From NCBI RefSeq assembly GCF_054482525.1, contig NZ_CM137006.1: 64,000 bases of DNA; one strand, written 5' to 3'. The position numbers were made by a program, and so were the translations under genes. Below, one piece after another: positions 4,420-42,617 of the stretch (its first letter is position 1; the number at the start of each line of letters is the position of its first letter). The notes below the pieces were generated by a model. That model was not told where the DNA came from and searched no databases. It saw nothing but the letters and a program-made list of their open reading frames with translations.

Positions 4420-6052
4420 CCTACTGATAGCGATGATAATCTTTGCGCTAATCTGGCCTGCAACCGCGCTCAGAGCGGCAGTGAGCAAAACAACCTGGGC
4501 GGATGCTCCGGCACGCGAGTTTGTGTTTGTCGAAAACAACTCAGACGACAACTTTTTCGTCACGCCTGGCGGGGCGCTGGATCCGCGCCTGACCGGTGCC
4601 AACCGCTGGACCGGTTTAAAATACAATGGTTCAGGAACCATCTATCAGCAAAGTCTCGGCTACATTGATAACGGTTACAACACCGGCCTTTATACCAACT
4701 GGAAGTTTGATATGTGGCTGGAAAATTCACCAGTTTCATCTCCTTTAACTGGCTTGCGCTGCATCAACTGGTACGCAGGGTGTAATATGACCACCAGTCT
4801 TATCCTGCCGCAAACCACCGACGCCAGTGGATTTTATGGCGCGACGGTGACCAGCGGCGGCGCGAAGTGGATGCACGGCATGTTGTCAGACGCGTTTTAC
4901 CAGTATCTGCAACAAATGCCCGTCGGCAGCAGCTTTACAATGACCATCAATGCCTGCCAGACCTCTGTGAACTATGACGCCAGCAGCGGCGCACGCTGTA
5001 AGGATCAGGCCTCCGGCAACTGGTATGTTCGCAACGTCACCCATACGAAAGCAGCAAATCTGCGGTTGATAAATACCCACTCGCTGGCGGAAGTATTTAT
5101 CAACAGCGACGGAGTACCGACTCTGGGCGAAGGGAACGCCGACTGCCGGACGCAAACCATCGGCAGCCGTTCAGGATTAAGTTGTAAGATGGTTAACTAT
5201 ACCCTGCAAACAAACGGACTCAGCAACACCTCAATCCATATATTCCCGGCGATCGCCAACTCGTCGTTAGCCTCGGCCGTCGGGGCGTACGATATGCAGT
5301 TCAGTCTGAATGGCAGTTCATGGAAACCGGTGAGCAATACCGCCTATTACTACACCTTCAACGAGATGAAGAGCGCAGACTCGATCTATGTTTTCTTCTC
5401 GAGCAACTTCTTTAAGCAGATGGTGAACCTCGGGATCAGCGATATCAACACCAAAGATCTATTCAACTTTCGCTTTCAGAACACCACATCACCGGAGTCT
5501 GGCTGGTATGAATTTTCTACCTCCAACACGCTGATTATCAAACCCCGTGATTTCAGCATCAGTATTATCTCCGATGAATATACTCAGACACCGTCGCGGG
5601 AGGGATATGTCGGCAGCGGCGAGTCGGCACTCGATTTCGGCTATATCGTAACCACCAGCGGTAAAACAGCTGCCGACGAAGTGCTGATCAAGGTGACCGG
5701 ACCCGCGCAGGTGATTGGCGGACGCTCCTATTGTGTCTTCAGCTCCGATGACGGTAAGGCGAAAGTACCGTTCCCGGCGACGCTTTCCTTTATTACCCGC
5801 AACGGAGCTACAAAAACCTACGATGCCGGGTGCGATGATAGCTGGCGGGATATGACCGATGCGCTGTGGCTGACTACACCGTGGACTGATATCTCTGGCG
5901 AAGTGGGGCAGATGGATAAGACCACTGTCAAATTTTCGATTCCAATGGATAACGCCATTTCGCTGCGTACGGTAGATGATAACGGCTGGTTTGGCGAAGT
6001 CAGCGCTTCAGGAGAGATTCATGTTCAGGCGACGTGGCGTAACATTAACTAA
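4409..6052 (+). CDS. ecpD: Pilus tip adhesin EcpD
   Basis: 547 aa with signal peptide; overlaps ecpC stop (translational coupling); operon position. Confidence 0.82.
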
Positions 6053-6731: not shown

Positions 6732-7043
6732 GACTTATCCATCGGTCGAGGGAAGAACTCCACCTCAGAGACTCAAAAATCGTTTAAATAATGTGGAAGC
6801 GATCGTCAATGTCACCTGTAACGATGGGCTTTCTCATATGTACACCATAGTGTTCAGGAGACACGGAAAGGTACCAGGCAGCCTGCTAACGAGTGGTTTA
6901 TTCACGAATTAGTACGTAAAATCGGTAACGGCTGGAAATCATTCAATACTCACACTATCGAAAGTTCCCCAGCCAACCGCGGTACGTTCTTACATACGAT
7001 GTACCGCTGTTCTCTTTACGATTTAAAGCTGTACTGGTGAATT

Positions 7044-16218: not shown

Positions 16219-17103
16219 ATGGCGAAAAGGGAGAACTACAACGAGCTGTACCTGTTTATGCAGGTGGTGCGGGAAGGCAGCTTTACCGCAGCGGCTCAGC
16301 GGCTGGGTCTTGCTCAGTCAGGAGTCAGCCGTTCTGTTCGCGAGCTTGAAGAAAGGCTGGGCGTCCAGCTGCTAGTGCGCACCACGCGTAAACTGTCGCT
16401 GACACAAGCAGGCGAGCAGCTCTACCAGAAGACGGCATCTGGATTTGAAATGTTAGATCTTGGGCTTGCCACGCTGGCGCACTATCGAGAGACGCCCTCC
16501 GGCACGGTGCGTATCAATGCCAGCCAGCACGCGATTGATAAATGCCTGCTGCCAAAGCTGGCGGTATTTAAACAGAGATATCCTGATATCCGGCTTGAAC
16601 TGATAAATGAGAGCCGGTTCGTCGATATCATCGAGGAAAGATTCGATGCAGGTGTCCGCCTGGGGCCTGAAGTCGGCCAGGGTATGGTCGCGGTACGCAT
16701 CACGCCCGATATGGAGATGGCAATTGTGGGGACTCCGGAACATTTTCGTCGTTATGGTTTTCCGCAAACCCCGGCGGATTTAAAGGCGCATCCCTGTATC
16801 GCCTATCAGTTTGCCGACGGCAGCGTATACCAGTGGGAACTCAATCAGGATGATAAAAAAATCACTCATCGCCCTGAAGGGCAATGGGCCCTATCCGACA
16901 GCTATATGGAAGCAGAAGCCGCCCGGCTGGGCCTCGGATTGGCCTATGTTCCTGTTGAACTGGTCGCGGATGATTTAGAACACGGTAACCTTATCAGGGT
17001 GTTGCAGCGTTACAGCCTGCGAATGGAGGGATTGTTTCTCTATTACCCTCATCGCAACGTCTCCCCCGCTCTGCGGATGGTCATTGATACATTGAAAATC
17101 TGA
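16219..17103 (+). CDS. LysR-family transcriptional regulator
   Basis: N-terminal HTH (FMQVVREGSFTAAAQRLGLAQSGVSRSVRELEERLGVQLLVR), 294 aa; divergent from the hydrolase gene. Confidence 0.85.
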   Translation: MAKRENYNELYLFMQVVREGSFTAAAQRLGLAQSGVSRSVRELEERLGVQLLVRTTRKLSLTQAGEQLYQKTASGFEMLDLGLATLAHYRETPSGTVRINASQHAIDKCLLPKLAVFKQRYPDIRLELINESRFVDIIEERFDAGVRLGPEVGQGMVAVRITPDMEMAIVGTPEHFRRYGFPQTPADLKAHPCIAYQFADGSVYQWELNQDDKKITHRPEGQWALSDSYMEAEAARLGLGLAYVPVELVADDLEHGNLIRVLQRYSLRMEGLFLYYPHRNVSPALRMVIDTLKI

Positions 17104-17793
17104 ACGTTAACAACGACCGACTCTTTACTGTGCAAAATTGTGTCAGGTAGTCCCTCTGCGTTCAATTCCAGGGTCTGTACACCCTGCTTTGAGCGAGAAA
17201 GAGGGGACTATCCAGCAATGGAGATCACCCAAAAGAAAAAACCACCTGGCTCCCTCGACAACCTTCATCCAGGCATTTAGCCTCAATCAACATTTTTATA
17301 TCTGTCAGGTTACTTCATGATGAAAACTGATCATTATCGTTGTTTTTGTTGCAATAGTAGAATACGCGTATTTATTCCTCCATCTCTATTAATAACGGCA
17401 ATAAACTGTTCACTTCACTGATATTTAAAATATGTATCCTTTTCAAGCTGTTCAGCGGCGTAAGAAAAAGCATTAATTATGAATTCGACGATTTAACCAT
17501 TTCAGTCTGATTGGTAATCATCTGTGATTAATGCTGGTCTATTGATTACGCCAGCATTAACCGCTTAGGGATGTATTCTTCCTGTTCATATAGCCCTCGA
17601 AAAAGAGAGAAAATAAAACTGTGTCCAATATTAATTTACCACTCCAGACCGAAGCATCGGTGGGATTAGCAGGACGACTGGTACAGAAGGATGGTATAGC
17701 GTCATTTGTCGGGCATTCCATTGCCATAATAATGACAATTTTGAATCAATAGACATGCTTCTTGATCATGTCTTAAAAATTAGACCATGAGCC

Positions 17794-18024
17794 TTACGAA
17801 GCATCATTTTTACTGACTGGTATTAACTTTGCTATCATATAAACTCTATTCTTAAAAAACGCGCCCAGAATTTTATATGATTTTCCTTGTTTTGCTGCCT
17901 GTAAAGAAATTTCTTTTTCAGTGCTGTCGATGGTTGAACCGACGGCAGTAATCGTTTTGGCGACGCTACTGAAGGATATTAAAGACAGTGTAACCACAAC
18001 AATTAAAGAATAGATAATATTCAT
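17794..18024 (-). CDS. Small secreted DUF1471 (YhcN/BhsA-like) protein
   Basis: Start trimmed to MNIIYSLIVVVTLSLISFSSVA signal peptide; about 76 aa; AT-rich context. Confidence 0.4.
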   Translation of the reverse strand: MNIIYSLIVVVTLSLISFSSVAKTITAVGSTIDSTEKEISLQAAKQGKSYKILGAFFKNRVYMIAKLIPVSKNDAS

Positions 18025-18239
18025 GCTAATTCTCCTGACAATTGAGAGGATGAGTTTTATATACAAAGGCATTAAATATGAGTCATGTTTACTCCCTGTG
18101 AAAATAATCTTACTGTAATTAAACCTTCATCTCCTTCGGAGTGAGCAATGCATAATATAATGCATCTTGCTATTCAAAACAGTGGATATAAATTTTCCTT
18201 CCGACCTATTTAATAAAACGTGAATATAAAAGTTATTCT

Positions 18240-18791
18240 TCAGTTTGCAGATGCAGTAGGTCTGATGGTAATTTCGGTTGTATCAACGCTTTCGGGAGAT
18301 TCAATAATATGCCTTACAGCACGGGCAATATCCGCGGGTTGAAGTGCAACAGAACGGTAGGCGTCTATTGACTTCATGGTTTCCACATGGGTAATGGTTG
18401 AAGCCAGTTCACTTTCTACAACCCCAGGATTTACGCAGGTCACACGGATTTTCGAGCTTTCCTGCCGTAAGCCATCCGAAATAGCCCGTACTGCAAATTT
18501 TGACGCGCAATAGACTGCGCCTGTGGGCACAACAGAAAGGGCACCAATAGAACCAAGATTGATTATCTGACCGGAACCCTGTGCTTCCATCACCGGAAGT
18601 ACAGCGCCAATTCCCCAAAGTACACCTTTGATATTCACGTCAATAGTGAGTTCCCATTCATCTTGTTTTCCTGCTGCAAGCGGTGAAAGCGGCATAACGC
18701 CCGCATTATTGATAAGAACATCAACTCGCCCCCAGCTATCCAGCGCTGCTTGCACGAAATCTGCCATGGACTGTCGGTCTGTGACATCCAA
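18240..18791 (-). pseudogene. 5'-truncated short-chain dehydrogenase/reductase (SDR)
   Basis: Carries central and C-terminal SDR motifs (NNAG, catalytic YxxxK as YCASK) but lacks the N-terminal TGxxxGxG Rossmann segment; abuts the integrase fragment. Confidence 0.7.
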
Positions 18792-18796
18792 CTTGC

Positions 18797-18962
18797 ATTT
18801 TCAGAAATGGGAGGCTGGGAGTCTATCGAAATGGTTCGTCGATATGCTCACCTCGCGCCTAATCACCTTACCGAACACGCACGGCAAATAGACTCAGTCC
18901 TGAACCCATCGGTCCCAAATTTGTCCCAGTCAAAAAAAAAGGAAGGTACTAATTATGTGTAA
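18797..18962 (+). pseudogene. C-terminal fragment of a tyrosine integrase
   Basis: [28 protein letters not shown] matches the conserved integrase C-terminus (catalytic Tyr in RYAHL); only about 55 codons remain. Confidence 0.6.
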
Positions 18963-18970
18963 CTTATTGA

Positions 18971-18992
18971 TTTAAATGGTGCGATAATAGGA
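18971..18992. repeat. Distal att-like direct repeat (degenerate copy of tRNA-Thr 3' end)
   Basis: tttaaatggtgcgataatagga matches tttgaaatggtgccgataatagga at 42535..42558 with two single-base gaps. Confidence 0.5.
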
Positions 18993-19170
18993 ATATAACA
19001 CACCACATATATTCTTTGATAAATATGACTATTTTCTTGTTTCATCTTTATAAATGCCCCCTTTTGTGCCCCCACCTTGTTTTTCATGCGACTCGATGAG
19101 ACTTTCATCGAGTCGTTAATCTCATCAAATTCTTCACGTATCGTGGAAACCTTCGCAGATCTCCATCCCC

Positions 19171-19539
19171 TCACAGCCGTGATCGGCTAAGAACAATATT
19201 ACTTACCTCCCTGTAAGAACACCGGCTCATCAGCCCGCACGCTTTCCTGGCTTGAAGAATGTCTGTCGCAGTCAAATATGGTGCTTGTACCTGAGAGGTA
19301 AATCCATTGCGATCAATACGAACTAACTCATATTTCTCTACCAGAAAGTTAACGGCATTAGCCAGAGTGATACCGGCATCGATATGCTCCTTTATAACGG
19401 TTTCATCGCTAAAAGGTGTGTCGCTTAGCATTAGGCCATAGTGCTGCTCAAGCAGACGAGTAAGTAACATTTGCCAGATTGCAACGGGCGACAGACAGGG
19501 CTTCGCCGCCCGCGAAATTGTAGCAGGTAGATTTTTCAT
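19171..19539 (-). CDS. cbtA: CbtA/YeeV/YkfI-family toxin (type IV TA)
   Basis: Start trimmed to [36 protein letters not shown], closely resembling remembered CbtA/YeeV; ATGA overlap with upstream antitoxin. Confidence 0.8.
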
Positions 19540-19877
19540 GTTTGCTCTCGTGAAATTTGTTTGCGCTGAGGGGGATAAATGGCGATGTATACGTAGCCGC
19601 AACTACCAAGGGTATCGGCTTCGCAGGTGAAACCGTTGTGGTACAGGGTGACACAGTGGGCATGGCGGGGATTCATTTCACCAGTGGTCAGCATCGATTC
19701 CATCTGACTGATAAAATGTGGAAATACGACATCCAACTTCAGGCTTTCGGCATCACTAAACTTACCGGTGATACTTGCCCGGTCAGCCAGATAGTGCAGC
19801 CGGTTGCCCTCCTGCACCAGACGTGCTCCCAGGCACGGCGTGATATCCCGCTGCAGGCCCCATGTGGGGTTGCTCAT
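19536..19877 (-). CDS. cbeA: CbeA/YeeU/YfjZ-family antitoxin
   Basis: 113 aa; [20 protein letters not shown]...[14 protein letters not shown] matches the YeeU family. Confidence 0.8.
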
Positions 19878-19894
19878 TTATAACCTCTTTATTG

Positions 19895-20116
19895 TCAGTT
19901 CAGGGTAATACTCACCAGACAGGTATAAGGTCCGTTGCGATCCTGGCGGCGTTCGACGTATACCGCCAGCACACTGGAAATGTCAGGAACCACCTTAACG
20001 GTGTATTGACAGACACTGCCATGCCACTGGTATCTGCCAGTGCAGAATCGAACAATGCGGGAGGCCGGATGCTGACGGTAAATCGTCATCGCCAGGCGTT
20101 TACTGATAATTTTCAT
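19895..20116 (-). CDS. DUF987 protein (YeeT/YkfH-like)
   Basis: MKIISKRLAMTIYRQHP...YQWHGSVCQYT resembles YeeT; conserved position upstream of cbeA. Confidence 0.65.
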   Translation of the reverse strand: MKIISKRLAMTIYRQHPASRIVRFCTGRYQWHGSVCQYTVKVVPDISSVLAVYVERRQDRNGPYTCLVSITLN

Positions 20117-21032: not shown

Positions 21033-22230
21033 TGATCCTACCCGCGTAATGTGGACACGCTCCTAAGCGAGATTCTGGTTTTCAAACTGTTTCGGGCTGA
21101 GGCCGCCATAATCGCTGTGACGCCGCCAGCGATTGTAATCGCACTTAATCCGCCGTCCGCATGATTTCCCGGCTGATAAAGCGTTCTCCGTGGATACACT
21201 CGACTTTTAACGAGTGTAAGAAGCTTTCCGCACAGGCATTATCATAACAGCAACCTTTTGCGCTCATGCTGCCATGCAGATTATGTCGTTTCAGCAGAGC
21301 CTGATAATCCGCTGAGCAGTACTGCCCGCCACGGTCGGTGTGAATTCGCCGCCACAGCGCCATCTGCAGTGCATCACAGGCAAGTTCTGCCGTTATTTGC
21401 GAGGACACCAACTAGCCAATAATAGCACGCGACCACCAGTCTATAACCACGGCAAAGTATAACAAGCTTTCATCGATGCGAAGGTACGTGATGTCACCAG
21501 CCCACTTCTGGTCCGAGCCACTAGATCTGAAGTCCTGCTTCAGCAGATTCTCCGGCACTGGCTGGTCGTGAGCACAGTAGATTAACGGGCTGAACAGACG
21601 TGAGGTTTTTGCCCGCAGGCCCTGACGACGCGAACTGTTGCTATCGTTTTGATGTTGTATTCCGGCGGCTCGTCTGCAAGACGAGCCGCACCATAACGCT
21701 GTTTTGCCTCAACGAATACCTTACAGACAGCTTCATTGAAGACGCACCGGAACTGTTGCCGATGGCTCAGTTGGGGACGACGCAGACACCAGGTATACCA
21801 GCAGCTGTGCGCCACGCACAGCACCCGACACATAGCTTTGATACTGAACTCAACCTGATATTTTTCGATAAAGATATACTTCATTTCAGGCGCTACGCGA
21901 AGTATGTCGCGCCCTTTTGGAGAATAGCCAACTCATTATCCCGCTCAGCCAGTTGACGTTTGAGGCAGGCAATCTCCGCTGCTTGTGCGCTCTCTCTCAG
22001 AGGATATTGTCTGGTGCAGTTGTTTGTAGAGCTGGGAATCGTAAAGGCTGAGTTCACGGGCGGTAGTGGCCACACCGAGACGTTCGGCCAACTTAAGGGC
22101 TTCTTCACGAAATTCAGGCGTGTGTTGTTTGCGTGACTTTTGTTGATTGATGCTGATTTTGTCATGTGAGCTACCTCTGATTGAGAGTTTACTCGCTTAG
22201 TCCCGTGTCCACTATTGGTGGGTAGGATCA
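21033..22230 (-). mobile_element. Degraded IS3-family insertion sequence (frameshifted orfA, interrupted orfB)
   Basis: Terminal inverted repeats tgatcctaccc (21033) and gggtaggatca (22220); ORFs 21893..22231, 21582..21884 and 21145..21411 match InsE C-terminus ([23 protein letters not shown]) and InsF N- and C-terminal parts, but not as continuous frames. Confidence 0.75.
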
Positions 22231-22579
22231 TTATTGATCAAAGATCAAGATGTGCAAAAATTCCCAAGTAAAGCCTTATCTGAACCTTCCGTTTTGTTAG
22301 CACATCTGACATTATTATTCAGTCAAATCCCTTCAGTTGATTGAGTTCAAAGGCGGTAGCTATGCTGATTTGCATTACTGTAAAACTTTTAAAGCAGAGG
22401 TTTATATAGAATTGCTCTGTTGAATAAATTAGTAGGTTCACATGGATTTTGAGTTCACCAAGCATGACAACTTGCGTTCTTCAAGCGATCCTGAGAAGCC
22501 TATTATATTAGTGTACAAGATGCCTCACGTGGCACCACTGAATTTTACATTAGACTCTATCCATTAAAACGATAAAATT

Positions 22580-24313
22580 ATGTACATAGCAAAAATTAAA
22601 TTTACAAATTTCAAATCATTCAAAGAGATGTCTTTTGAGTGCAATGATAAATTCAACATAATTGTTGGTGAAAATAATATTGGTAAAAGCACATTATTTG
22701 AGGGGGTAAGTTTATGGAAATATGCTTATGACAACCTTATTCAAGAAAAAAACAAAAACAAATTCTACAAAGCTTCAACTAACTACTACATTACCTATTC
22801 TACACTCGATCAAATAAGACTTGTTGACGATATTGATATTTTTAACGACCCAAAGAATAGCTCCGCATCAATATGCATTACAATTAAAGATGAACAAAAT
22901 GAATTTGATTTAGAGATTAGATTTGAAAAGCCAGGGATTAAAAATTCATACTTACGGATATTTAATAGCAATGGTTCTGATAATGACACACAGTTTTCAA
23001 ACTTTGAACGATTCTCAAACTATATAAAAGAAAAGGATTGCACTCTAAAAGATGCCATTTACATTTACCAAACAAGACCAATATCAACTATTTTTAGAGA
23101 TGAGCCATTTTACAATAATGCGCAGATAGAGAAAAAAATAAATATTGGAAAGTCACATGATGTCTTAAGGAATAAAATATTAAAAACCGAAAATACTCAA
23201 GCCACAAGGGTTGCACAAAAATTTGAAAATCTTGAGATTCGCCTACAAAAAGTCCTTGGTGAAAACTATATCTTAAAATTTAAGAATAGAAATCGAATCG
23301 ATGATGAGTATGTTAAAATAACTGCAACAAAGGAAAACGGGAAAGAATTGGAAATATCACTTATGGGTAGTGGTTTTTTGCAAGTCTTAGAGATATTTTC
23401 AACAATTGAGTATATGGAAAAGAATTCAACCGGTATTAACCTCATTCTTATCGATGAGCCTGATTCACATATCCACTCAAATTTACAAGCAAATTTAATT
23501 GACGAACTAAAGCAACAAACAGCATGTCAAATTTTTGTCATAACACATAATGACAGACTAACATCAAAAGCTAATGAAGGTGAGCTTTTTTATCTAAATC
23601 AGATAGTTAAGGATCTTGGTTTATTGTCTCACCTTGAAATATCTGATTATTCAAAAGTTAAAGATGGTCTAGCTAATGTACTAACAGCTATAAATGATGG
23701 AGATGAAACACCCATTGTTATAACTGAAGGAAAAACGGACCAGAAAATTTTAACAACTGCTTGGGAAAAGCTAAACCCAGGAACTCCTATGCCTTTTAAA
23801 ATAATTTCATCCGGCATTCAAATTGAAGAGGAAAAAAGAACTGGGTGCGCAGAGGCAGTTAGAAGATCTTTAGAATACATTTCAACATTAACTGATAGAA
23901 CAATTATCGGTTTATTTGATAATGATCGGGAGGGAAATGAGCAGTTCAAAGGATTAAATCGTTCTATTTTTGAACCTCATGACCTGCAAAATAACTCCCG
24001 AAAACATCAGATAAAAAATATCTATGGGCTTATTCTTCCCGTTCCTGTGCATAGAGAACGTTTTGTACAAAACAATTCTTTAACGCAGCGTTACTTCGTA
24101 ATTGAACAATATTTCCAAGATGAAATATTACTACAGCATAACATGAAAGGTGAGTCAATATTAGGTACTGAGGTATTTTTTGTTAATGACTCAAGAAAGA
24201 ATGAGTTTTCAGAGTCAACCAATGACCTTCCGGTAGAATGCTTTGGGGATTTTAGTATTTTATTCGATAAAATTTCCGATTTATTGGCTAACAATAGACC
24301 AGAAAACACTTGA
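22580..24313 (+). CDS. OLD-family ATP-dependent endonuclease (ABC-type ATPase + C-terminal TOPRIM)
   Basis: Walker A GENNIGKST, Walker B/H-loop LILIDEPDSHIH, TOPRIM glutamate IVITEGKTD and DxD motif FDNDREG; 577 aa; strongly AT-rich codon usage. Confidence 0.7.
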   Translation: MYIAKIKFTNFKSFKEMSFECNDKFNIIVGENNIGKSTLFEGVSLWKYAYDNLIQEKNKNKFYKASTNYYITYSTLDQIRLVDDIDIFNDPKNSSASICITIKDEQNEFDLEIRFEKPGIKNSYLRIFNSNGSDNDTQFSNFERFSNYIKEKDCTLKDAIYIYQTRPISTIFRDEPFYNNAQIEKKINIGKSHDVLRNKILKTENTQATRVAQKFENLEIRLQKVLGENYILKFKNRNRIDDEYVKITATKENGKELEISLMGSGFLQVLEIFSTIEYMEKNSTGINLILIDEPDSHIHSNLQANLIDELKQQTACQIFVITHNDRLTSKANEGELFYLNQIVKDLGLLSHLEISDYSKVKDGLANVLTAINDGDETPIVITEGKTDQKILTTAWEKLNPGTPMPFKIISSGIQIEEEKRTGCAEAVRRSLEYISTLTDRTIIGLFDNDREGNEQFKGLNRSIFEPHDLQNNSRKHQIKNIYGLILPVPVHRERFVQNNSLTQRYFVIEQYFQDEILLQHNMKGESILGTEVFFVNDSRKNEFSESTNDLPVECFGDFSILFDKISDLLANNRPENT

Positions 24314-34753: not shown

Positions 34754-36853
34754 ATGAACCGAGAGCAAGCCCAACAACTGCTGCAGACTGCTTTGGCTAA
34801 CCCTGCTGCTGAATTTCGTGATGGTCAGTGGGAAGCCATTGATGCATTGGTTAATCGTCGTCAGAAACTACTGGTTGTACAGCGTACCGGCTGGGGTAAG
34901 AGCTCGGTTTATTTTATTAGTACTAAAATCTTCCGTGACCGCGAGATGGGGCCTACGATTATTGTATCGCCACTGCTTGCATTAATGCGTAACCAGATTG
35001 ATTCAGCGCAGCGTTTGGGAATAGTTGCCGAAACAATGAATTCGGCTAATAGGGAGGATTGGCAGGCTGTAACTCAACGAATTCTCAATAACCAAATAGA
35101 CTGTTTGCTCATTTCCCCAGAGCGGCTAGCAAATGATACCTTTATTGAGACGGTCCTTCAGCCCATTGCCGATCGAATCGCCCTAATGGTAATTGACGAA
35201 GCACACTGTATTTCAGATTGGGGTCATGATTTTCGTCCTGATTATCGCCGTATCGTAAATATCCTTCGTCAATTGCCCGCCAACACCCCAGTACTAGGTA
35301 CGACTGCAACTGCCAATAACCGAGTTGTTGACGATATCCAAGCCCAGCTTGGGGATATACAAATCCACCGAGGTCCTCTTACTCGCGAAAGCCTCGCTCT
35401 GCATACAATGTCTTTACCCGATCAGGCATCTCGTTTAGCTTGGCTCGCCCAAGTTATTCCGATGCTACATGGAACAGGCATTATTTACGCATTAACAGTT
35501 CGTGATGCCGAGCAGGTGGCAGAATGGTTGAGCATGCACGGTATAGTTGCCATGGCATACCACGGTAGCATCGAGGCTGAAGGTTTTGAGAACAGCAATG
35601 CTTACCGTCAGTACTTAGAAGAATTGTTACTTAACAACCAGCTTAAGGTTTTAGTAGCAACGACCGCGTTGGGTATGGGTTATGATAAACCTGATTTAAG
35701 TTTTGTAATCCATTACCAAGCTCCGAGTTCAATTGTTGCATACTACCAGCAGGTGGGTCGGGCTGGGCGCGGTATTGCTCATGCAACAGGTGTACTGATG
35801 TCGGGGATAGAAGATAACGACATCCATGATTTTTTCCGTGATTCTGCATTTCCATCGGAGGATCAAGTTAACGATATTCTTCGAGTGTTGGAAAATAATG
35901 ATGGTCTATCACTCCGCAACATCGAGGAAAAAACTAACCTACGCCACGGCCAGATTGAGAAAGTACTTAAGTTACTGAGTGTAGAAAATCCAGCCCCCAT
36001 CATTAAAAATGAAAATCGTTGGGTTAGGACCACAGTTCGCTATCAAATGGATCATGCCCGAATTGCTCATTTGACAGGACAACGTATTCAGGAATGGGAA
36101 GAGGTTCAAGCGTACCTTACCGACACTGGATGCAAAATGGCATTTCTACGTCGTTCTCTGGACGATCTCGACCCAACTCCATGTGGTAAATGCTCGTCCT
36201 GTATTGGTCAACCAATTATAAATCAAATCATTGACCCTGCTTTGGTACATCGTGCAGGGACTTTCCTAAAACATGCAGAAATGCCGATTACTCCAAAAGC
36301 TCAGGTAGCAGCTAATGCTTTTTTGCAATATGGCTTCAGCGGCAATTTGCCACAGCAGATTAGAGCACAAGAAGGTCGAGTGTTGTCTCGCTGGGGAGAT
36401 GCTGGTTGGGGACGGTTAGTAGCCGATAATAAACGTGCAGATCACTTTGATGATGAGCTAGTGGTTGCTATGGCCGAGATGATTCAGCAGCGTTGGCAAC
36501 CGAATCCAGCGCCACAATGGGTATGCTGTGTACCTTCACGCAATCATGTACAATTAGTCCCTGATTTCGCTCGCCGCTTGGCGGCATGTTTGAGGTTGCC
36601 TTTTTTCAATGCCATCAGCAAGGTTAGAGATAACCAACCTCAAAAGGGGCAACAAAACCGTTTCCATCAATGCCGCAATCTGGACGGTGCTTTTGAGATA
36701 AATCAACCTCTACCTAACACACCGGTTCTACTTGTAGATGACATTGTAGATTCAGGCTGGACGTTAACTGTCATCGCAGCACTCCTACAACGCGCAGGTA
36801 GTGGTAAAGTATACCCTGTTGCACTTGCTTCATCTTCGGTAAAAGACTCATGA
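34754..36853 (+). CDS. RecQ-family helicase fused to a C-terminal phosphoribosyltransferase-like domain (PsyrT-like)
   Basis: Helicase motifs GWGKS (I), DEAH (II), TATA (III), QQVGRAGR (VI); C-terminal type-I PRTase motif VLLVDDIVDSGWTLT. Confidence 0.8.
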   Translation: MNREQAQQLLQTALANPAAEFRDGQWEAIDALVNRRQKLLVVQRTGWGKSSVYFISTKIFRDREMGPTIIVSPLLALMRNQIDSAQRLGIVAETMNSANREDWQAVTQRILNNQIDCLLISPERLANDTFIETVLQPIADRIALMVIDEAHCISDWGHDFRPDYRRIVNILRQLPANTPVLGTTATANNRVVDDIQAQLGDIQIHRGPLTRESLALHTMSLPDQASRLAWLAQVIPMLHGTGIIYALTVRDAEQVAEWLSMHGIVAMAYHGSIEAEGFENSNAYRQYLEELLLNNQLKVLVATTALGMGYDKPDLSFVIHYQAPSSIVAYYQQVGRAGRGIAHATGVLMSGIEDNDIHDFFRDSAFPSEDQVNDILRVLENNDGLSLRNIEEKTNLRHGQIEKVLKLLSVENPAPIIKNENRWVRTTVRYQMDHARIAHLTGQRIQEWEEVQAYLTDTGCKMAFLRRSLDDLDPTPCGKCSSCIGQPIINQIIDPALVHRAGTFLKHAEMPITPKAQVAANAFLQYGFSGNLPQQIRAQEGRVLSRWGDAGWGRLVADNKRADHFDDELVVAMAEMIQQRWQPNPAPQWVCCVPSRNHVQLVPDFARRLAACLRLPFFNAISKVRDNQPQKGQQNRFHQCRNLDGAFEINQPLPNTPVLLVDDIVDSGWTLTVIAALLQRAGSGKVYPVALASSSVKDS

Positions 36854-38175
36854 ATGTATCTAACTTATTGTCAAAAACAGCCCAGGCGACCTTACTTCTG
36901 ACTAGTTATTTTTCTAAAGCAACTAGCGAAAACGCCAAACCACTTTCCAACGCCGAATGGGGACGTTTTGCGCTATGGTTGAAAGAAAAAGCAGTTACGC
37001 CAGCTGACTTGTTGGACTCTGATCCTCAAACCTTACTGAATGGCTGGTACGACTCCCGTATCAGTACGGATCGGATCATTGAGTTGATGAATCGAGGACA
37101 TAGCCTCGCTTTGGCTATGGAGAAATGGCAACGGGCAGGCTTGTGGGTAGTGACACGTTCTGATCCAGAATATCCATGGAGATTAAAACATCGGCTTAAA
37201 ACAGACTCTCCCCCTGTTTTATTTGGCTGTGGCAATAAAGCCTTATTAAATAGAGGGGGATTGGCTGTCATTGGTTCTCGAAATGCCAATGCATCAGACC
37301 TTACTTTTACTGATCACATCGGCGTTAAAGCTGCGGACGAAAATATAGCTGTTGTATCTGGTGCTGCACGTGGAGTAGACGAAACAGCCATGTTAGGTGC
37401 AATGAGGCAAGGTGGAGTTGTAATCGGGATTTTGGCAGATAGCCTGTTAAAAGCTGCGACTAGTGCCAAATGGCGCAAGGGGCTTATGAATGACCATGTT
37501 GTGCTAATATCCCCTTTTTACCCTGAGGCTGGTTTCTATGCGGGAAATGCCATGGCTCGCAATAAATATATCTATTGCTTGTCGGATAGTGCATTGGTTA
37601 TTCATTCTGGTCGAAAAGGTGGAACAATTAGTGGGGCAGAGGAAAATCTTAAGAAAGGATGGGTGCCACTATGGGTCAATCCAACAACCGATCTAGATTC
37701 AGCTAATGCTGACTTAGTGAGCAAAGGGGGACATTGGTTGCCAAGTGATAGTAATGGCCTATCCATCGAGAATTTGCTTAAAAATAATGACAGATCAAAA
37801 ATGCAGTTAAAAGCAGAGCCCCAAGATCTTTTTTCAGAATTGTCGCATCCAGAATTAATTATTGGATCTGCAGAGAAATCGTCAACTCAAGCTCTCGAAA
37901 AAGATTGGACTGCTACTATTAATGAAGAAACTCCCAACCTAATAACTACGGAAAAAAAATTAGAGGAAAAAGAGTTAGATGTAAATCCTATAGACTTTTA
38001 TCTGCTATTCAGGACAGAATTACAGCGATTGGCCGAACATCCAATTACAGTAGATAGGTTGACAGAAGTCACTGGGTTGAATAAATCGCAAGTGCTTGAT
38101 TGGTTGAAACGTGCTGAACAAGATGGTTTGGTAAAAAAACTAAACCGTCCTACAAGATATCAATTAAATGAGTAG
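36850..38175 (+). CDS. DprA/Smf-like Rossmann-fold protein with C-terminal winged helix (PsyrA/ShosA-like)
   Basis: DprA core LAVIGSRNA...VVSGAARGVDETAMLGA...GGTI; ATGA start/stop overlap with the upstream helicase gene. Confidence 0.75.
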   Translation: MNVSNLLSKTAQATLLLTSYFSKATSENAKPLSNAEWGRFALWLKEKAVTPADLLDSDPQTLLNGWYDSRISTDRIIELMNRGHSLALAMEKWQRAGLWVVTRSDPEYPWRLKHRLKTDSPPVLFGCGNKALLNRGGLAVIGSRNANASDLTFTDHIGVKAADENIAVVSGAARGVDETAMLGAMRQGGVVIGILADSLLKAATSAKWRKGLMNDHVVLISPFYPEAGFYAGNAMARNKYIYCLSDSALVIHSGRKGGTISGAEENLKKGWVPLWVNPTTDLDSANADLVSKGGHWLPSDSNGLSIENLLKNNDRSKMQLKAEPQDLFSELSHPELIIGSAEKSSTQALEKDWTATINEETPNLITTEKKLEEKELDVNPIDFYLLFRTELQRLAEHPITVDRLTEVTGLNKSQVLDWLKRAEQDGLVKKLNRPTRYQLNE

Positions 38176-38356: not shown

Positions 38357-39346
38357 TTATGTCTTTCTTTCAAGTGCAACTCCTAGATCCGCTGCCATTT
38401 TTTGGATTAGCCTCCAATCTAGCGGCCATTCTTTTTCTAAAGTAGATCTCCGTCTTTTGATTAACCAGTAAACGAAAATAACAACGCTTTGTTCAAAGAA
38501 ACTACTCCCTTCTTTGCCATCCTGAATTAGTAGTTCGAGCTCAGGAGTCTCTTCTATAAATTGATGTAATCTTTCTATCGTATCGGGTTTGATCACTTCT
38601 TTAAATGTATCTAGAATTAATAAAGTCGATTTTTGATTGTTTGGTTTATTCTTTGTTAAAGCTATGTAGATATTATCTAAAGTTCGCTGAATTCCTGCGT
38701 AACCATCAGATGCTGCGTTAATTGCTTTCGATACTGAACAGAAAAAATCATCCGTAGTTTCTATTAACGCCATGCTTTTTGCTACAGTTCTATGTATATC
38801 TGGTTCAACTATAGTTTTTGCTTTATATATGGCATCATGAGTTAACTCGGCATAGGCATGTTGTAATAAAGATCTAACCTGTATCTCACATGGAATGCCT
38901 TGTTCAATGATAACTCCATTATAATCAAAGGATTCTTTTGCAGTTACTATAAAATGTACGGATTGATACGTGAAAATTAATGGTGTATTTAATCTTTCTT
39001 CTTCGTAGTGTCTTGATGTCTTATAATGCCATTTATTACTACTTTTTATTATTTCACATATTTCATCTATATCTGAAGTAAGTAAAACGACAAACCTGAT
39101 GCCAACTTTATCTTCAATCTCTTGGTAGGGGTTTTTGTATGATTTTTCTTTTCGATGAAAAGCTTTATCGATTAGAGATGTCTTTTCTTTTATTCTCGGT
39201 GTCGCAGGTTGCTTGAGAAAGCTATTGAGGTCCCGCTCTTTATTTTCTGAGAGTTCTTTGCAAATATTTGAGACGACAAAATCTCCCCATGCTTTATACA
39301 TGGGTAGTTCTTTTTCCCAAAGTTGCGAAAACTCTAATTCATTCAT
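38357..39346 (-). CDS. RelA/SpoT-fold nucleotidyltransferase (toxSAS-like)
   Basis: Synthetase-domain signature PRIKEKTSLIDKAFHRKE, GIRFVV, YQSVHFIV and CEIQVRSLLQHAYAELTHDAIYK (EIQIRT..QHxWAE..H..YK); AT-rich. Confidence 0.7.
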   Translation of the reverse strand: MNELEFSQLWEKELPMYKAWGDFVVSNICKELSENKERDLNSFLKQPATPRIKEKTSLIDKAFHRKEKSYKNPYQEIEDKVGIRFVVLLTSDIDEICEIIKSSNKWHYKTSRHYEEERLNTPLIFTYQSVHFIVTAKESFDYNGVIIEQGIPCEIQVRSLLQHAYAELTHDAIYKAKTIVEPDIHRTVAKSMALIETTDDFFCSVSKAINAASDGYAGIQRTLDNIYIALTKNKPNNQKSTLLILDTFKEVIKPDTIERLHQFIEETPELELLIQDGKEGSSFFEQSVVIFVYWLIKRRRSTLEKEWPLDWRLIQKMAADLGVALERKT

Positions 39347-39354
39347 TAATTAGC

Positions 39355-40446
39355 TCATTCCTGAAGGGTTATCTTGTCCTTGATGAGGATTGTTGTCCAC
39401 TCAGCAGGTTTACCATCTTTATCGAGTTCACCTATAGTAGATTCAATTACAATATGGCTTTTAAAAACTTCCGCAGGGGCTGTGATTTTTATATTTTTAC
39501 TAAAGTTAAGCTTTCTTGTTTTTAATTTGCTTTCAATATGCTCGTTGTCTCTTGTGAAAGAGGTTTGTGGTATACCAGATTCATGAGCATACTCAAGATA
39601 AAGATCCTTAATACTATCATCAAAAAATCTTTCAGCATAATCTTTAGCTGAAATTACATCCGATTTTTCATGTTTAAGATATGTAACTAATGCATTTTTA
39701 AGCACATTTTTCTTTTCCTCGCTGACATCCAATTCATTAAGAAATTCACTCGTTTTTTCATAGAAATTCTTTGTTGTGCGGGCACTTGTTTCTGGGTAAC
39801 CGCAACCTAAAAAATTTTGATAAAAATATTGTGCTGCAGCTTTACCATCCGACTTACTGATTTGATAGTCAGAAATCATCACATCCCAAGATTTATTAAG
39901 ATCAGTATTATCAAGAGAATTGGTTGATTGGAAAAAACCGGCAGTTTTATAAAGTTTTGTGGATGGTGTAAGTAATATTTCTTCAACGAATTTTAATGAT
40001 ATTTGGCCCGTTTTATCGTCGATTACTTTTTCATATGCACTATAAATATCAGCCTTGATAATTCCAATGAATTTTCTTTTATTTACACCATAGTCGCCAG
40101 AAAAGATTACTACAATTCCGCCTGGAATTGCTCGTCTTGTCTGCGCATCTGCCAGTTTATTAGCTATTGTGTAAGTCTCATCAATATAATCCTCTCCCTC
40201 TTTATCAATTAAAGTTGTAGCAATATAAGGAACATAATCTTTTCCATGCTCCTTTATTTGCATTTTTACGGCTTTAGAACCATCACCTAAAGCGTCGATT
40301 ACTCGTGATTTAAAACCTTGCAAGGCATCAGCATCAAATTTTATAAATGAAGAACCTCTTGTTGGTTCTATTTTGTTTCCTTCTTCGTCGCGCTGATGAA
40401 TTTGGTGGATAATTATTTTGTTAATATTCATTTTGCTGATATTCAT
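39355..40446 (-). CDS. NA37-family nucleoid-associated protein homolog (YejK/NdpA-like)
   Basis: Similarity along the whole length to remembered YejK: N-terminus INKIIIHQIHQRDE vs INQIALHQLIKRDE, and central and C-terminal blocks; AT-rich. Confidence 0.65.
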   Translation of the reverse strand: MNISKMNINKIIIHQIHQRDEEGNKIEPTRGSSFIKFDADALQGFKSRVIDALGDGSKAVKMQIKEHGKDYVPYIATTLIDKEGEDYIDETYTIANKLADAQTRRAIPGGIVVIFSGDYGVNKRKFIGIIKADIYSAYEKVIDDKTGQISLKFVEEILLTPSTKLYKTAGFFQSTNSLDNTDLNKSWDVMISDYQISKSDGKAAAQYFYQNFLGCGYPETSARTTKNFYEKTSEFLNELDVSEEKKNVLKNALVTYLKHEKSDVISAKDYAERFFDDSIKDLYLEYAHESGIPQTSFTRDNEHIESKLKTRKLNFSKNIKITAPAEVFKSHIVIESTIGELDKDGKPAEWTTILIKDKITLQE

Positions 40447-40463
40447 TTCTGTGTAGTTCCATC

Positions 40464-40931
40464 TTATTGATTATCTGATTTTATATTTTTGCTTTCAATA
40501 TATTCTTTGTGAATATTATTCCATTCTTGACTGTCTTTTTCCCAAATAGATTTATATTCATCAAAAAGACTATCAATATCTGACTGGGTTACATCTTCTT
40601 TGGATTTTAAGTAATTAACTTTGTTTCTAAGTTGATACATGGCTAGCAAAGTAGCTTTTTGCCTAAACCATAATTTTTGATAATCAAATCTTGCAGTCCA
40701 CCCACTAACTAGAGTAAGACAGGCACTCACAATAAGAGCAGAATTTTTCTGTATTTTTTCATATCCAGATAAATCGAAGGCTAATATCAGTGTAGTAATA
40801 GTGCTCAAAAATATAGTCATGAAAAAAAATATTTTTAATTTTTTTTTATTCCATTTCGCCTTGCACTTTATTATGTTGATACTTTTATGGATTTCATCCA
40901 GTAAAAACTGTTGAGAAGATGTTATAGACAA
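40464..40931 (-). CDS. Small 2-TM membrane protein, SLATT-like
   Basis: Two hydrophobic helices (FFFMTIFLSTITTLILAF, ALIVSACLTLVSGW) followed by a charged helical tail; first gene of the three-gene operon. Confidence 0.5.
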   Translation of the reverse strand: MSITSSQQFLLDEIHKSINIIKCKAKWNKKKLKIFFFMTIFLSTITTLILAFDLSGYEKIQKNSALIVSACLTLVSGWTARFDYQKLWFRQKATLLAMYQLRNKVNYLKSKEDVTQSDIDSLFDEYKSIWEKDSQEWNNIHKEYIESKNIKSDNQ

Positions 40932-41175: not shown

Positions 41176-42378
41176 TTACACTACCGCATGTAAGATTCTA
41201 CGTACAGAGTGTAGATCAATCAAATAGTCTGAATACCACTGCATCATCTCTCTTCGCCCCTCCAGATATTGCGCATGGTTGTACGTCCCACGAATCGCAT
41301 TCTTATCGACATGCGCAAGCTGGGTTTCAATCCATGCCGTGTTGAACCCTTCCTCGTGCAAAATCGTACTCATCGTGTGACGGAAACTATGCCCCGTTAC
41401 CTTCCCCGTATACCCAATCCGTTTGAATACCTGATTAATACTCGCTTCACTCATCGTTTTACGTGGATCATTGCGCCCTGGGAACACCAAAGGATATTGC
41501 CCGGACATTACTTTGAGCTGTTGTACGATTTCTAGCGCTTGGGTAGAGAGGGGTACAAGATGGGGCCGTTTCATCTTCATACGCTCTGCAGGTATTTCCC
41601 ACACCGCTTTCTCAAGATCAAACTCACTCCAGAAAGCACCTCGAAGCTCGCCAGTACGAACTCCCGTAAGGATAAGCAGACGAGCGGCAAGAACAACTAA
41701 CGGGCTTCCTGTATAACCTGCGAGAGCTTTAAAGAAGTCTGGTAACTCCTCTACTGACAGGAAGGGATAATGCTTCGATTCATGCCCTGACATCGCGCTG
41801 GTTAGGTCCGCTGCAGGATTGTATTCCGCGCGACCTGTAACGATGGCATAACGAAAGACTTCGCTGCAGCGCTGGCGAACCTTCTTGGCCTTCTCTGTCG
41901 CGCCACGGCTTTCGATTCGACGCAGCACATTAAGCAGAACCAGCGGTTTGATTTCATTCACTGGCAGTTGGCCGATATAGGGGAAAATATCTTTATTGAA
42001 GGCTTCGATAATATCGGAGGCATAGCCTTCTGACCACCGGCTCACCTTAGTACCGTGCCACTCAAGCGCCACAGACTGGAACGTGTTGTTGAGCTGCACA
42101 TCGCGAACCAGCTTTTCTTCTTTCTTTGCGAAAGACGGGTCGATACCCTCGGCCAGCTTTTTCTTGGCTTCATCACGCAGAGCCCTCGCTTGTGCAAGGG
42201 AAACAGCCGGATAGACCCCAAAAGCCATACGCTTCTCTTTTCCATTGAAGCGATATTTCATTCGCCAGTATCGAGAACCAGAGGGAACGACTTCAAGATA
42301 CAAGCCAGCACCATCTGCCAGCTTATAGGCTTTCTCTTTGGGTTTAGCAGCGTCTACCTGTCGCGCATTAAGCTTCAT
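41176..42378 (-). CDS. P4-type tyrosine integrase
   Basis: Start trimmed to MKLNARQV; catalytic motifs GVRTGELRG, HSFRHT, LAHVD..RGTYNH; immediately adjacent to the tRNA-Thr 3' end. Confidence 0.85.
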   Translation of the reverse strand: MKLNARQVDAAKPKEKAYKLADGAGLYLEVVPSGSRYWRMKYRFNGKEKRMAFGVYPAVSLAQARALRDEAKKKLAEGIDPSFAKKEEKLVRDVQLNNTFQSVALEWHGTKVSRWSEGYASDIIEAFNKDIFPYIGQLPVNEIKPLVLLNVLRRIESRGATEKAKKVRQRCSEVFRYAIVTGRAEYNPAADLTSAMSGHESKHYPFLSVEELPDFFKALAGYTGSPLVVLAARLLILTGVRTGELRGAFWSEFDLEKAVWEIPAERMKMKRPHLVPLSTQALEIVQQLKVMSGQYPLVFPGRNDPRKTMSEASINQVFKRIGYTGKVTGHSFRHTMSTILHEEGFNTAWIETQLAHVDKNAIRGTYNHAQYLEGRREMMQWYSDYLIDLHSVRRILHAVV

Positions 42379-42534
42379 TGGGGGCATCTCCCTGGACCGA
42401 ACACAGAATGCCCCCACTTATGCCCCCAACTGCGACTTGATTTCGGTTGAGTCCAGTTGATAACAGGAGATAAGATACGGGCCAGAAACCGCAGTATACG
42501 GGCTTTTAGTTGATTTCGGTAGACTTGGGAAGAG

Positions 42535-42558
42535 TTTGAAATGGTGCCGATAATAGGA
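42535..42558. repeat. Proximal att-like repeat overlapping the tRNA-Thr 3' end
   Basis: tttgaaatggtgccgataatagga; partner at 18971..18992. Confidence 0.5.
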
Positions 42559-42617
42559 GTCGAACCTACGACCTTCGCATTACGAATGCGCTGCTCTACC
42601 AACTGAGCTATATCGGC
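42542..42617 (-). tRNA. thrW: tRNA-Thr (anticodon CGU)
   Basis: Reverse complement reads GCCGATATAGCTCAGTTGGTAGAGCAGCGCATTCGTAATGCG...TTCGACTCC...CACCA: cloverleaf arms, CGT anticodon in the loop, encoded CCA. Confidence 0.85.

Follow-up and report, generated by a model that had tools for sequence, protein, structure and literature searches.

At the distal end of a genomic island in the Escherichia coli chromosome, a short-chain dehydrogenase (SDR) gene lacking its 5′ part, the 3′ end of an integrase gene and a repeat of the 3′ end of a tRNA-Thr gene lie side by side, raising the question of whether they are the decayed end of that island or the record of an older event at the same site. The window (the whole 64,000-nt stretch of DNA analyzed here) covers the E. 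coli chromosome from the pao region as far as thrW–proA–proB, and ARAGORN found thrW (tRNA-Thr CGU; 42542–42617, minus strand) as its sole tRNA gene. We conclude that the arrangement is a non-functional scar left, very probably, by one deletion and by two mobile elements that used the thrW attachment site in succession.

The truncated SDR gene and its surroundings

Comparison of related genomes shows that the starting backbone had the order paoD – MFS – alpha/beta hydrolase – LysR – ykgR′ – small ORF – SDR – LysR (the K-12 yagP homologue) – thrW – proA. The window is closest here to strain PCN033, which is 99.95% identical to positions 17001–18992, and to SCU-102, which is 99.9% identical to positions 17800–19300. 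The feature at the left of the scar is the following.

18240–18793, minus strand: 5′-truncated SDR pseudogene (Pfam, blastp, DNA homology, PGAP annotation of relatives)

The pseudogene consists of codons 57–240 and the stop codon of a gene for a 240-aa classical short-chain dehydrogenase. The intact SDR of strain 2020CK-00188, a comparison that the first-pass annotation had proposed, is 240 aa long, and the window fragment is 97.8% identical at the amino acid level to its residues 57–240. The Pfam profile adh_short covers the fragment at profile positions 56–191 of 195 only (E = 3.8e-38), and the TGxxxGxG Rossmann (dinucleotide-binding) motif is absent; in 2020CK-00188 this motif, TGASSGIG, occupies residues 8–15, inside the 56 residues missing from the window. 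The N-terminal nucleotide-binding segment has thus been lost, as first noted, while LINNAGV (NNAG), GSIGA (catalytic Ser) and YCASK (YxxxK) are retained. Because DNA homology between the window and the intact gene ends at 18793, no alternative start codon can restore a full-length SDR. Consistent with this, PGAP annotates the same segment in PCN033 and SCU-102 as 'incomplete; missing N-terminus'. The fragment differs from the 2020CK-00188 gene by 4 synonymous and 3 non-synonymous changes over 552 nt, counts too small to speak to selection. The intact SDR gene, together with a divergent 299-aa LysR gene, was found in 2020CK-00188 and in O157:H7 F8952, and a query spanning the SDR 5′ end, LysR and flank was covered to at least 80% in 385 of 5426 complete genomes.

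Two small features lie to the left of the SDR fragment. Between it and the LysR gene there is a ykgR fragment, at about 17325–17393, whose N-terminus is missing according to the annotation of relatives. A 92-aa ORF (17794–18072, minus strand) has a hydrophobic N-terminus, is "hypothetical" in RefSeq genomes and had no Pfam match. A scan of 17700–19300 revealed no terminators, and promoter-like sites at the level of shuffled sequence; an Rfam scan of 17000–20000 gave sub-threshold chance matches only (CyVA-1, E = 0.066; osmY, E = 0.73).

An integrase remnant of the P22/SfII family

To the right of the SDR fragment lie two features of phage origin.

18794–18962, plus strand: 3′ remnant of a P22/SfII-family tyrosine integrase gene (tblastn, blastp, codon mapping)
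18963–18973, plus strand: phage-derived spacer from the int stop codon to the att core (alignment)

The remnant comprises 55 sense codons (18795–18959) and a TAA stop codon and matches residues 333–387 of the 387-aa SfII Int, in agreement with the original description of an integrase C-terminal fragment of roughly 55 codons. An absence of homology to recombinases would have refuted the original reading, but the homology is strong: in tblastn against phage genomes the remnant matched Int of the Shigella phages SfII, SfI and SfIV and of phi458 at 94% on the amino acid level (E = 6e-27) and P22 Int at 86%, and blastp gave 90.7% to residues 319–372 of the full-length integrases encoded by Sanji and ET490. 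Pfam found no match in the 52-aa integrase piece, probably because the piece is so short. Only GGW and RRYAHL, with the catalytic Tyr, are kept; the HDLRHT box is missing together with the whole of the protein N-terminal to it, so that neither the R-K-H-R-H/W-Y set nor the N-terminal arm- and core-binding domains of a functional tyrosine recombinase are complete. The remnant does possess the high C-terminal identity and the collinear downstream attP arm that define descent from the P22/SfII group. The RefSeq annotation of near-identical genomes likewise gives the integrase fragment as 'incomplete; missing N-terminus'.

In an alignment of the window, PCN033, the SfII int–attP region and the Sanji lysogen, the spacer was collinear with SfII attP, and the whole block 18794–18992 matched SfII int–attP in order, from the int stop codon across the 15-nt spacer into the 46-nt thrW 3′ segment. 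Integration at thrW with a 46-bp attP has been reported for the SfII phage group (PMC3851460). The same geometry is seen in Sanji and 30COLEC, two lysogens in which a full-length integrase gene of the P22/SfII family converges on thrW. This collinearity and this shared geometry identify the integrase fragment as the phage-derived arm of an old attL.

Upstream of codon 336, the remnant belongs to a diverged integrase allele (CTTGCATTTTCAG, GGCTGGTTCAGTCCAGTGTTTCTCTTCTTGCATTTTCAGAAATGGG), the counterpart of which reads VPLSVLQEMGGW elsewhere. Among the genomes inspected, no full-length integrase carried the exact diverged allele (CTTGCATTTTCAG), which was present only in truncated remnants. Besides the window, the allele was observed as a 204-nt remnant in 15.TR.026_OXA (locus L006, 4966–5169) and as a remnant of about 190 nt, interrupted by an internal stop, in MS1494, a B2 strain (locus L007, about 4975–5158). 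The left ends of these remnants are nested yet different (169, about 190 and 204 nt). A single truncation point shared across lineages, as expected of a module boundary, was considered and is refuted by these alignments. The nested ends suggest that int may have been lost stepwise, from an already decayed remnant, rather than in one event. A 182-bp query covering the int′/att segment had matches in 2328 of the 5426 genomes, many of them as short fragments. The 439-aa integrase beside the SDR–LysR pair in 2020CK-00188 was considered as the undeleted counterpart of the remnant and rejected, as blastn and blastp found no homology between the two; the 439-aa integrase is IntF-like, belongs to an island and has a partial copy of thrW, about 47 nt long, next to it.

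The deletion junction

The two fragments meet at a single point.

18792–18793: deletion junction with 2-bp CT microhomology (multiple alignments)

On the SDR side the sequence at the junction is CATCCAACT, which continues as cccgcg in the intact gene; on the integrase side, CTTGCATTTTCAG is preceded by tctctt in a longer remnant. The CT at 18792–18793 is common to both sides, and homology to longer int remnants begins at 18792–18794, so the fragments abut directly. The 5-bp gap that had been described between them comes from the bookkeeping of ORF start codons. The junction alignments contained neither filler DNA nor an IS remnant between the SDR and integrase fragments. To judge from this direct abutment at a CT microhomology, free of filler and IS sequence, the junction is the signature of a deletion by illegitimate recombination. 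The proposal that the locus carries the scar of an earlier integration or deletion is borne out: a deletion that followed an earlier integration made the junction.

The chromosome lost about 1.3 kb, comprising SDR codons 1–56, the intergenic region, LysR and flank and corresponding to positions 6991 to about 8283 of the 2020CK-00188 locus (L002). The prophage attR is also gone, together with the whole prophage except the last 169 nt of int. The DNA downstream of the SDR-paired LysR gene is the native thrW flank: in 20AR0300 thrW is directly adjoined by what remains of LysR, and in K-12 the native flank is found just beyond the partial copy of thrW that closes CP4-6. We also observed that K-12 yagP (locus L004, 36200–36800) is a C-terminal remnant of the LysR regulator that is paired with SDR in intact loci, and that in K-12 the whole MFS–hydrolase–LysR–SDR block is absent between paoD and yagP.

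The present island and its attachment repeats

The element that now separates the scar from thrW, with its repeats, is made up as follows.

18974–18992, minus strand: attR of the present island, a 19-nt direct repeat (pattern search, PCN033-type comparison)
18993–42538: 23.5-kb integrative island (direct repeats, Pfam, PADLOC, absence from PCN033)
41176–42417, minus strand: the island's own intact P4-type integrase, 413 aa (Pfam)
42539–42617, minus strand: thrW with attL (ARAGORN, pattern search)

Pfam and PADLOC identified as cargo CbtA/CbeA, DUF987, RadC, IS3 fragments, an AAA_21 ATPase, DUF932, a YkfA-like GTPase, a YagK-like protein, PsyrTA, RelA_SpoT/NA37/SLATT and the P4-type integrase. 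The integrase has all of its domains (Arm-DNA-bind_3, E = 3e-29; Phage_int_M, E = 6e-34; Phage_integrase, E = 6e-23), adjoins thrW and is transcribed away from it. In PCN033 the island region is absent and int′ abuts thrW. The element thus shows the distal tRNA 3′-end repeat, the internal integrase and the empty site in relatives by which tRNA-flanked islands are recognized, and the scar lies at its thrW-distal end, the boundary to which it had originally been assigned. The integrase fragment is not part of the present island: it lies outside the direct repeats, and blastp detected no similarity between it and the island's own intact 413-aa integrase. Upon excision of the island, the circle junction is predicted to read GTTATATTCCTATTATCGCACCATTTCAAACTC, and the restored site is predicted to have the same sequence as PCN033.

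Several genes of the island may be mentioned for themselves. The PsyrT/PsyrA pair (34754–38175, plus strand; PADLOC E = 0 and 7e-170) consists of a DEAD helicase–PRTase fusion followed by a DprA/SLOG protein. Beside the island integrase (38357–40931, minus strand) lie three adjacent genes for RelA_SpoT, NA37 (nucleoid-associated) and SLATT_4 (2TM effector) proteins, which look like a conflict or defence module and had only weak PADLOC matches (PDC-S33, 2TM effector). A 577-aa AAA_21/AAA_15 ATPase (22580–24313, plus strand) gave GajA-, AriA-, PtuA- and NsnB-like PADLOC matches with E of about 1e-20, and its gene adjoins a broken IS3 transposase, the IS3 fragments being located at 21145–22231; the scans revealed no partner gene for it.

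The distal repeat, AAATGGTGCGATAATAGGA at 18974–18992, repeats the 20-nt AAATGGTGCCGATAATAGGA at 42539–42558 with one base missing, and the latter copy is made up of 3 nt of flank and the last 17 nt of thrW. Read in the tRNA sense, the attR is TCCTATTATCG-CACCATTT, with one G missing. The repeat pattern was matched twice in the window and in none of 100 shuffles. In PCN033-type genomes the real thrW stands exactly where the window has the distal repeat, and homology breaks inside the repeat. A degenerate tRNA-Thr 3′-end repeat had been placed within 10 bp of the integrase fragment: the repeat is indeed there, but the distance from the int stop codon is 11 nt to the shared AAA and 15 nt to the tRNA-derived part.

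The same description is probably wrong in calling the repeat degenerate on account of its one missing base. The one-base gap (TGGTG-CGATAATA) is common to the attR of the window, Res13, ET490, SE11 and Z1323HEC0462. In SE11 the attR is flanked by native DNA, not by a phage arm, yet has the same gap, and in Z1323HEC0462 the gap occurs with an unrelated P4-like satellite. Independent insertions with the gap are found at loci L008, L009, L010 and L014, and thrW itself was intact in every case inspected alongside a gapped attR. Since it is common to independent insertions in other genomes, the gap is probably not the result of decay. Most likely, the missing G is carried by the attP of the elements and strand exchange takes place 3′ of the gap, within CACCATT(T), to which an attP-borne gap would confine it. 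More speculatively, the gap would then define a group of thrW-targeting P4-type integrases with a strand-exchange region of only 7–8 nt. The attP origin is not watertight, because SCU-102, otherwise 99.9% identical, has an attR without the gap, with an intact GCCG; its extra C could be a sequencing error or the product of gene conversion.

Distribution of the junction and order of events

The SDR′–int′ junction was counted over 5426 complete genomes and was found in identical form in 19 of them, all E. coli. It might be used to mark a lineage. In 15 of the 19 an annotated tRNA-Thr abuts int′, which was confirmed at the sequence level for PCN033, and the remaining 4 have four different inserts between the int′ fragment and thrW.

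SCU-102: island as in the window
Res13: related island, diverging on the island side
Z1323HEC0462: P4-like satellite with ogr/Delta, DUF927 and YoeB/YefM genes
19KM1776: element encoding a 357-aa integrase, preceded by 49 nt from the 3′ part of thrW

Res13 and the window are about 91% identical over a 121-nt attR query, as against 98–100% across the scar junction. In 19KM1776, PGAP annotates a 112-nt 'tRNA-Ser' (locus L016, 2678–2789) that is the 49-nt thrW 3′ part fused to the end of the inserted element. A further occupant of the hot spot was observed in O157:H7 F8952 (locus L011, 17900–30100), where the intact SDR–LysR pair is followed by a P4-like satellite with genes for a primase-helicase, an Icd-like protein, a polarity suppression protein, ogr/Delta, an ABC-three-component system and its own integrase.

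Since the scar abuts thrW in 15 genomes and is followed by four different elements in the others, the scar would have formed first, and the regenerated thrW would then have been re-used repeatedly. We propose the following course. A temperate phage with a P22/SfII-type integrase would have entered thrW through the 46-nt core, so that int and the tRNA gene converged, their 3′ ends 15 nt apart. As the junction suggests, one or more illegitimate-recombination deletions at the 2-bp CT would then have joined 18793 to 18794, removing int codons 1 to about 332, the remaining prophage and attR, as well as SDR codons 1–56 and a stretch of chromosome of about 1.3 kb with the LysR gene and intergenic DNA; the product would have been the state seen in PCN033, with SDR′–int′ directly against thrW. 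Finally, as comparison with such genomes shows, the 23.5-kb island with its own P4-type integrase entered thrW in the lineage of the window, displacing the scar 23.5 kb from thrW and leaving a 19-nt attR copy at 18974–18992.

The order could also have been reversed, the island being already present at thrW in tandem with the prophage when the deletion occurred, and the PCN033-type state arising later by precise excision. Such a tandem is known from ET490, where a lambdoid prophage with a full integrase, without any deletion, is followed by the same attR and then by a CbtA island, and excision is plausible because the island integrase is intact. However, the four insert-bearing scar genomes contain four different elements, and even the related island of Res13 diverges from that of the window on the island side. 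This pattern fits repeated insertion into an empty scar site better than a single ancestral island, and we regard the reversed order as improbable.

Is the scar functional?

Function is not to be expected of either fragment. The SDR fragment lacks both the Rossmann motif and its own promoter and upstream side, and the integrase fragment has only the Tyr and one other active-site position and no DNA-binding domains. Minus-strand read-through from the cbtA operon may occur.

That a stub of the int 3′ end and attL arm beside thrW might be maintained for some function seems very unlikely to us. If it were maintained, the stub could shape the integration and excision of thrW-targeting elements, for example as an arm-site decoy or partner for P22-like Int/Xis, or it could alternatively supply downstream sequence for thrW expression. 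The corresponding account of its persistence, in which the old arm has been kept by selection for thrW termination or processing or as a recombination arm for P22-like phages, draws on the abundance of the 182-bp segment (2328 of 5426 genomes, many short fragments) and on several independent deletions that end within about 50 nt of one another (169, about 190 and 204 nt). We hold it to be highly unlikely. The int′ region contains no terminator-like structure on either strand and no Rfam match above chance level, the fragment in the window cannot serve the tRNA because it lies 23.5 kb from thrW, the B2 copy is interrupted by an internal stop and its repeat has decayed further, and genomes with the native thrW flank lack the fragment altogether; moreover, counter-selection of deletions that reach thrW or proA is by itself enough to explain surviving short stubs.

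Weakest of all is the reading of the 55-codon fragment as the present island's own integrase, decayed like an intF-type gene of CP4-6 by a deletion that immobilised the island at its distal end: the fragment does adjoin the att repeat at the distal boundary, and K-12 and 2020CK-00188 do have an integrase gene at the thrW-distal end of an island, but it lies outside the island's direct repeats, resembles neither the island integrase nor IntF in blastp, duplicates a role already filled by the intact 413-aa integrase beside thrW, abuts thrW in island-free PCN033 and an annotated tRNA-Thr in 15 scar genomes altogether, and is missing from SE11, which has the same island family and attR, so that we give this reading almost no chance.

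The SDR′–int′ scar is ordinary decay at a well-known integration hot spot, and both of its parts are already pseudogenes in PGAP/RefSeq. Its importance beyond annotation is little. Because the integrase fragment has no relation to the present island, an island boundary or a 'defective island' inferred from this fragment would be wrong. What the locus offers is a worked example of the layered history of thrW, with phage integration, deletion into flanking genes and re-use by at least four different elements.

Comparison with known systems

The distal end of CP4-6 in K-12 (intF – partial thrW copy – yagP′), with which the first-pass annotation had compared the locus, is only loosely alike. Both are thrW-distal boundaries with a partial thrW direct repeat and decayed backbone beyond it, and K-12 yagP′ is a remnant of the same LysR gene that is deleted in the window. 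The geometry is opposite, however: IntF is full-length (466 aa) and encoded inside the island on the minus strand with its 5′ end toward the repeat, whereas the window fragment is external to the repeats and turns its 3′ end toward the 19-nt copy. No similarity between the fragment and IntF was detectable by blastp (best E = 8.6), so that an intF-type island end of the CP4-6 kind is not what the window has. The K-12 thrW repeat is about 48 nt long and reaches the anticodon loop, compared to 19 nt in the window, and the CbtA-family module is thrW-proximal in K-12 (ykfI) and distal in the window.

Another similar case is found in B2/APEC strains such as MS1494, where a stub of int lies next to the Vat island. 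This stub is an N-terminally truncated piece of the same diverged allele, followed by a thrW repeat, even more decayed, and then by an island (IS1 and the vat island). It differs from the window in its left partner, which is the yagU side, the pao operon and SDR region being absent, and in the stub itself, which is about 190 nt long, contains an internal stop and is about 90% identical.

The integrase side can be compared with the attL of P22/SfI/SfII/SfIV/SfV-type prophages at thrW, of which Sanji, 30COLEC and ET490 are full examples in E. coli. That attL shares with the window the Int C-terminus (94% on the amino acid level), the position of the stop codon, the 15-nt spacer, the start of the thrW core and an int gene converging on the tRNA 3′ end. 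By contrast, the window keeps just 169 nt of int and no other prophage DNA, has upstream of codon 336 the diverged allele not seen full-length in the inspected genomes, and, owing to recombination of a second element at this point, is left with just 17 (minus 1) of the 46 core nucleotides.

The locus as a whole resembles tandem accretion at tRNA genes; thrW has been listed with the tDNAs that are targeted most often in E. coli (PMC7545054). In such arrays, as in the window, a newer element enters the tRNA gene regenerated by an older one, so that the older attL becomes the flank of the newer attR. The window departs from this scheme in that its older element has been cut down to 169 nt and an att arm by a deletion that also removed chromosomal genes.
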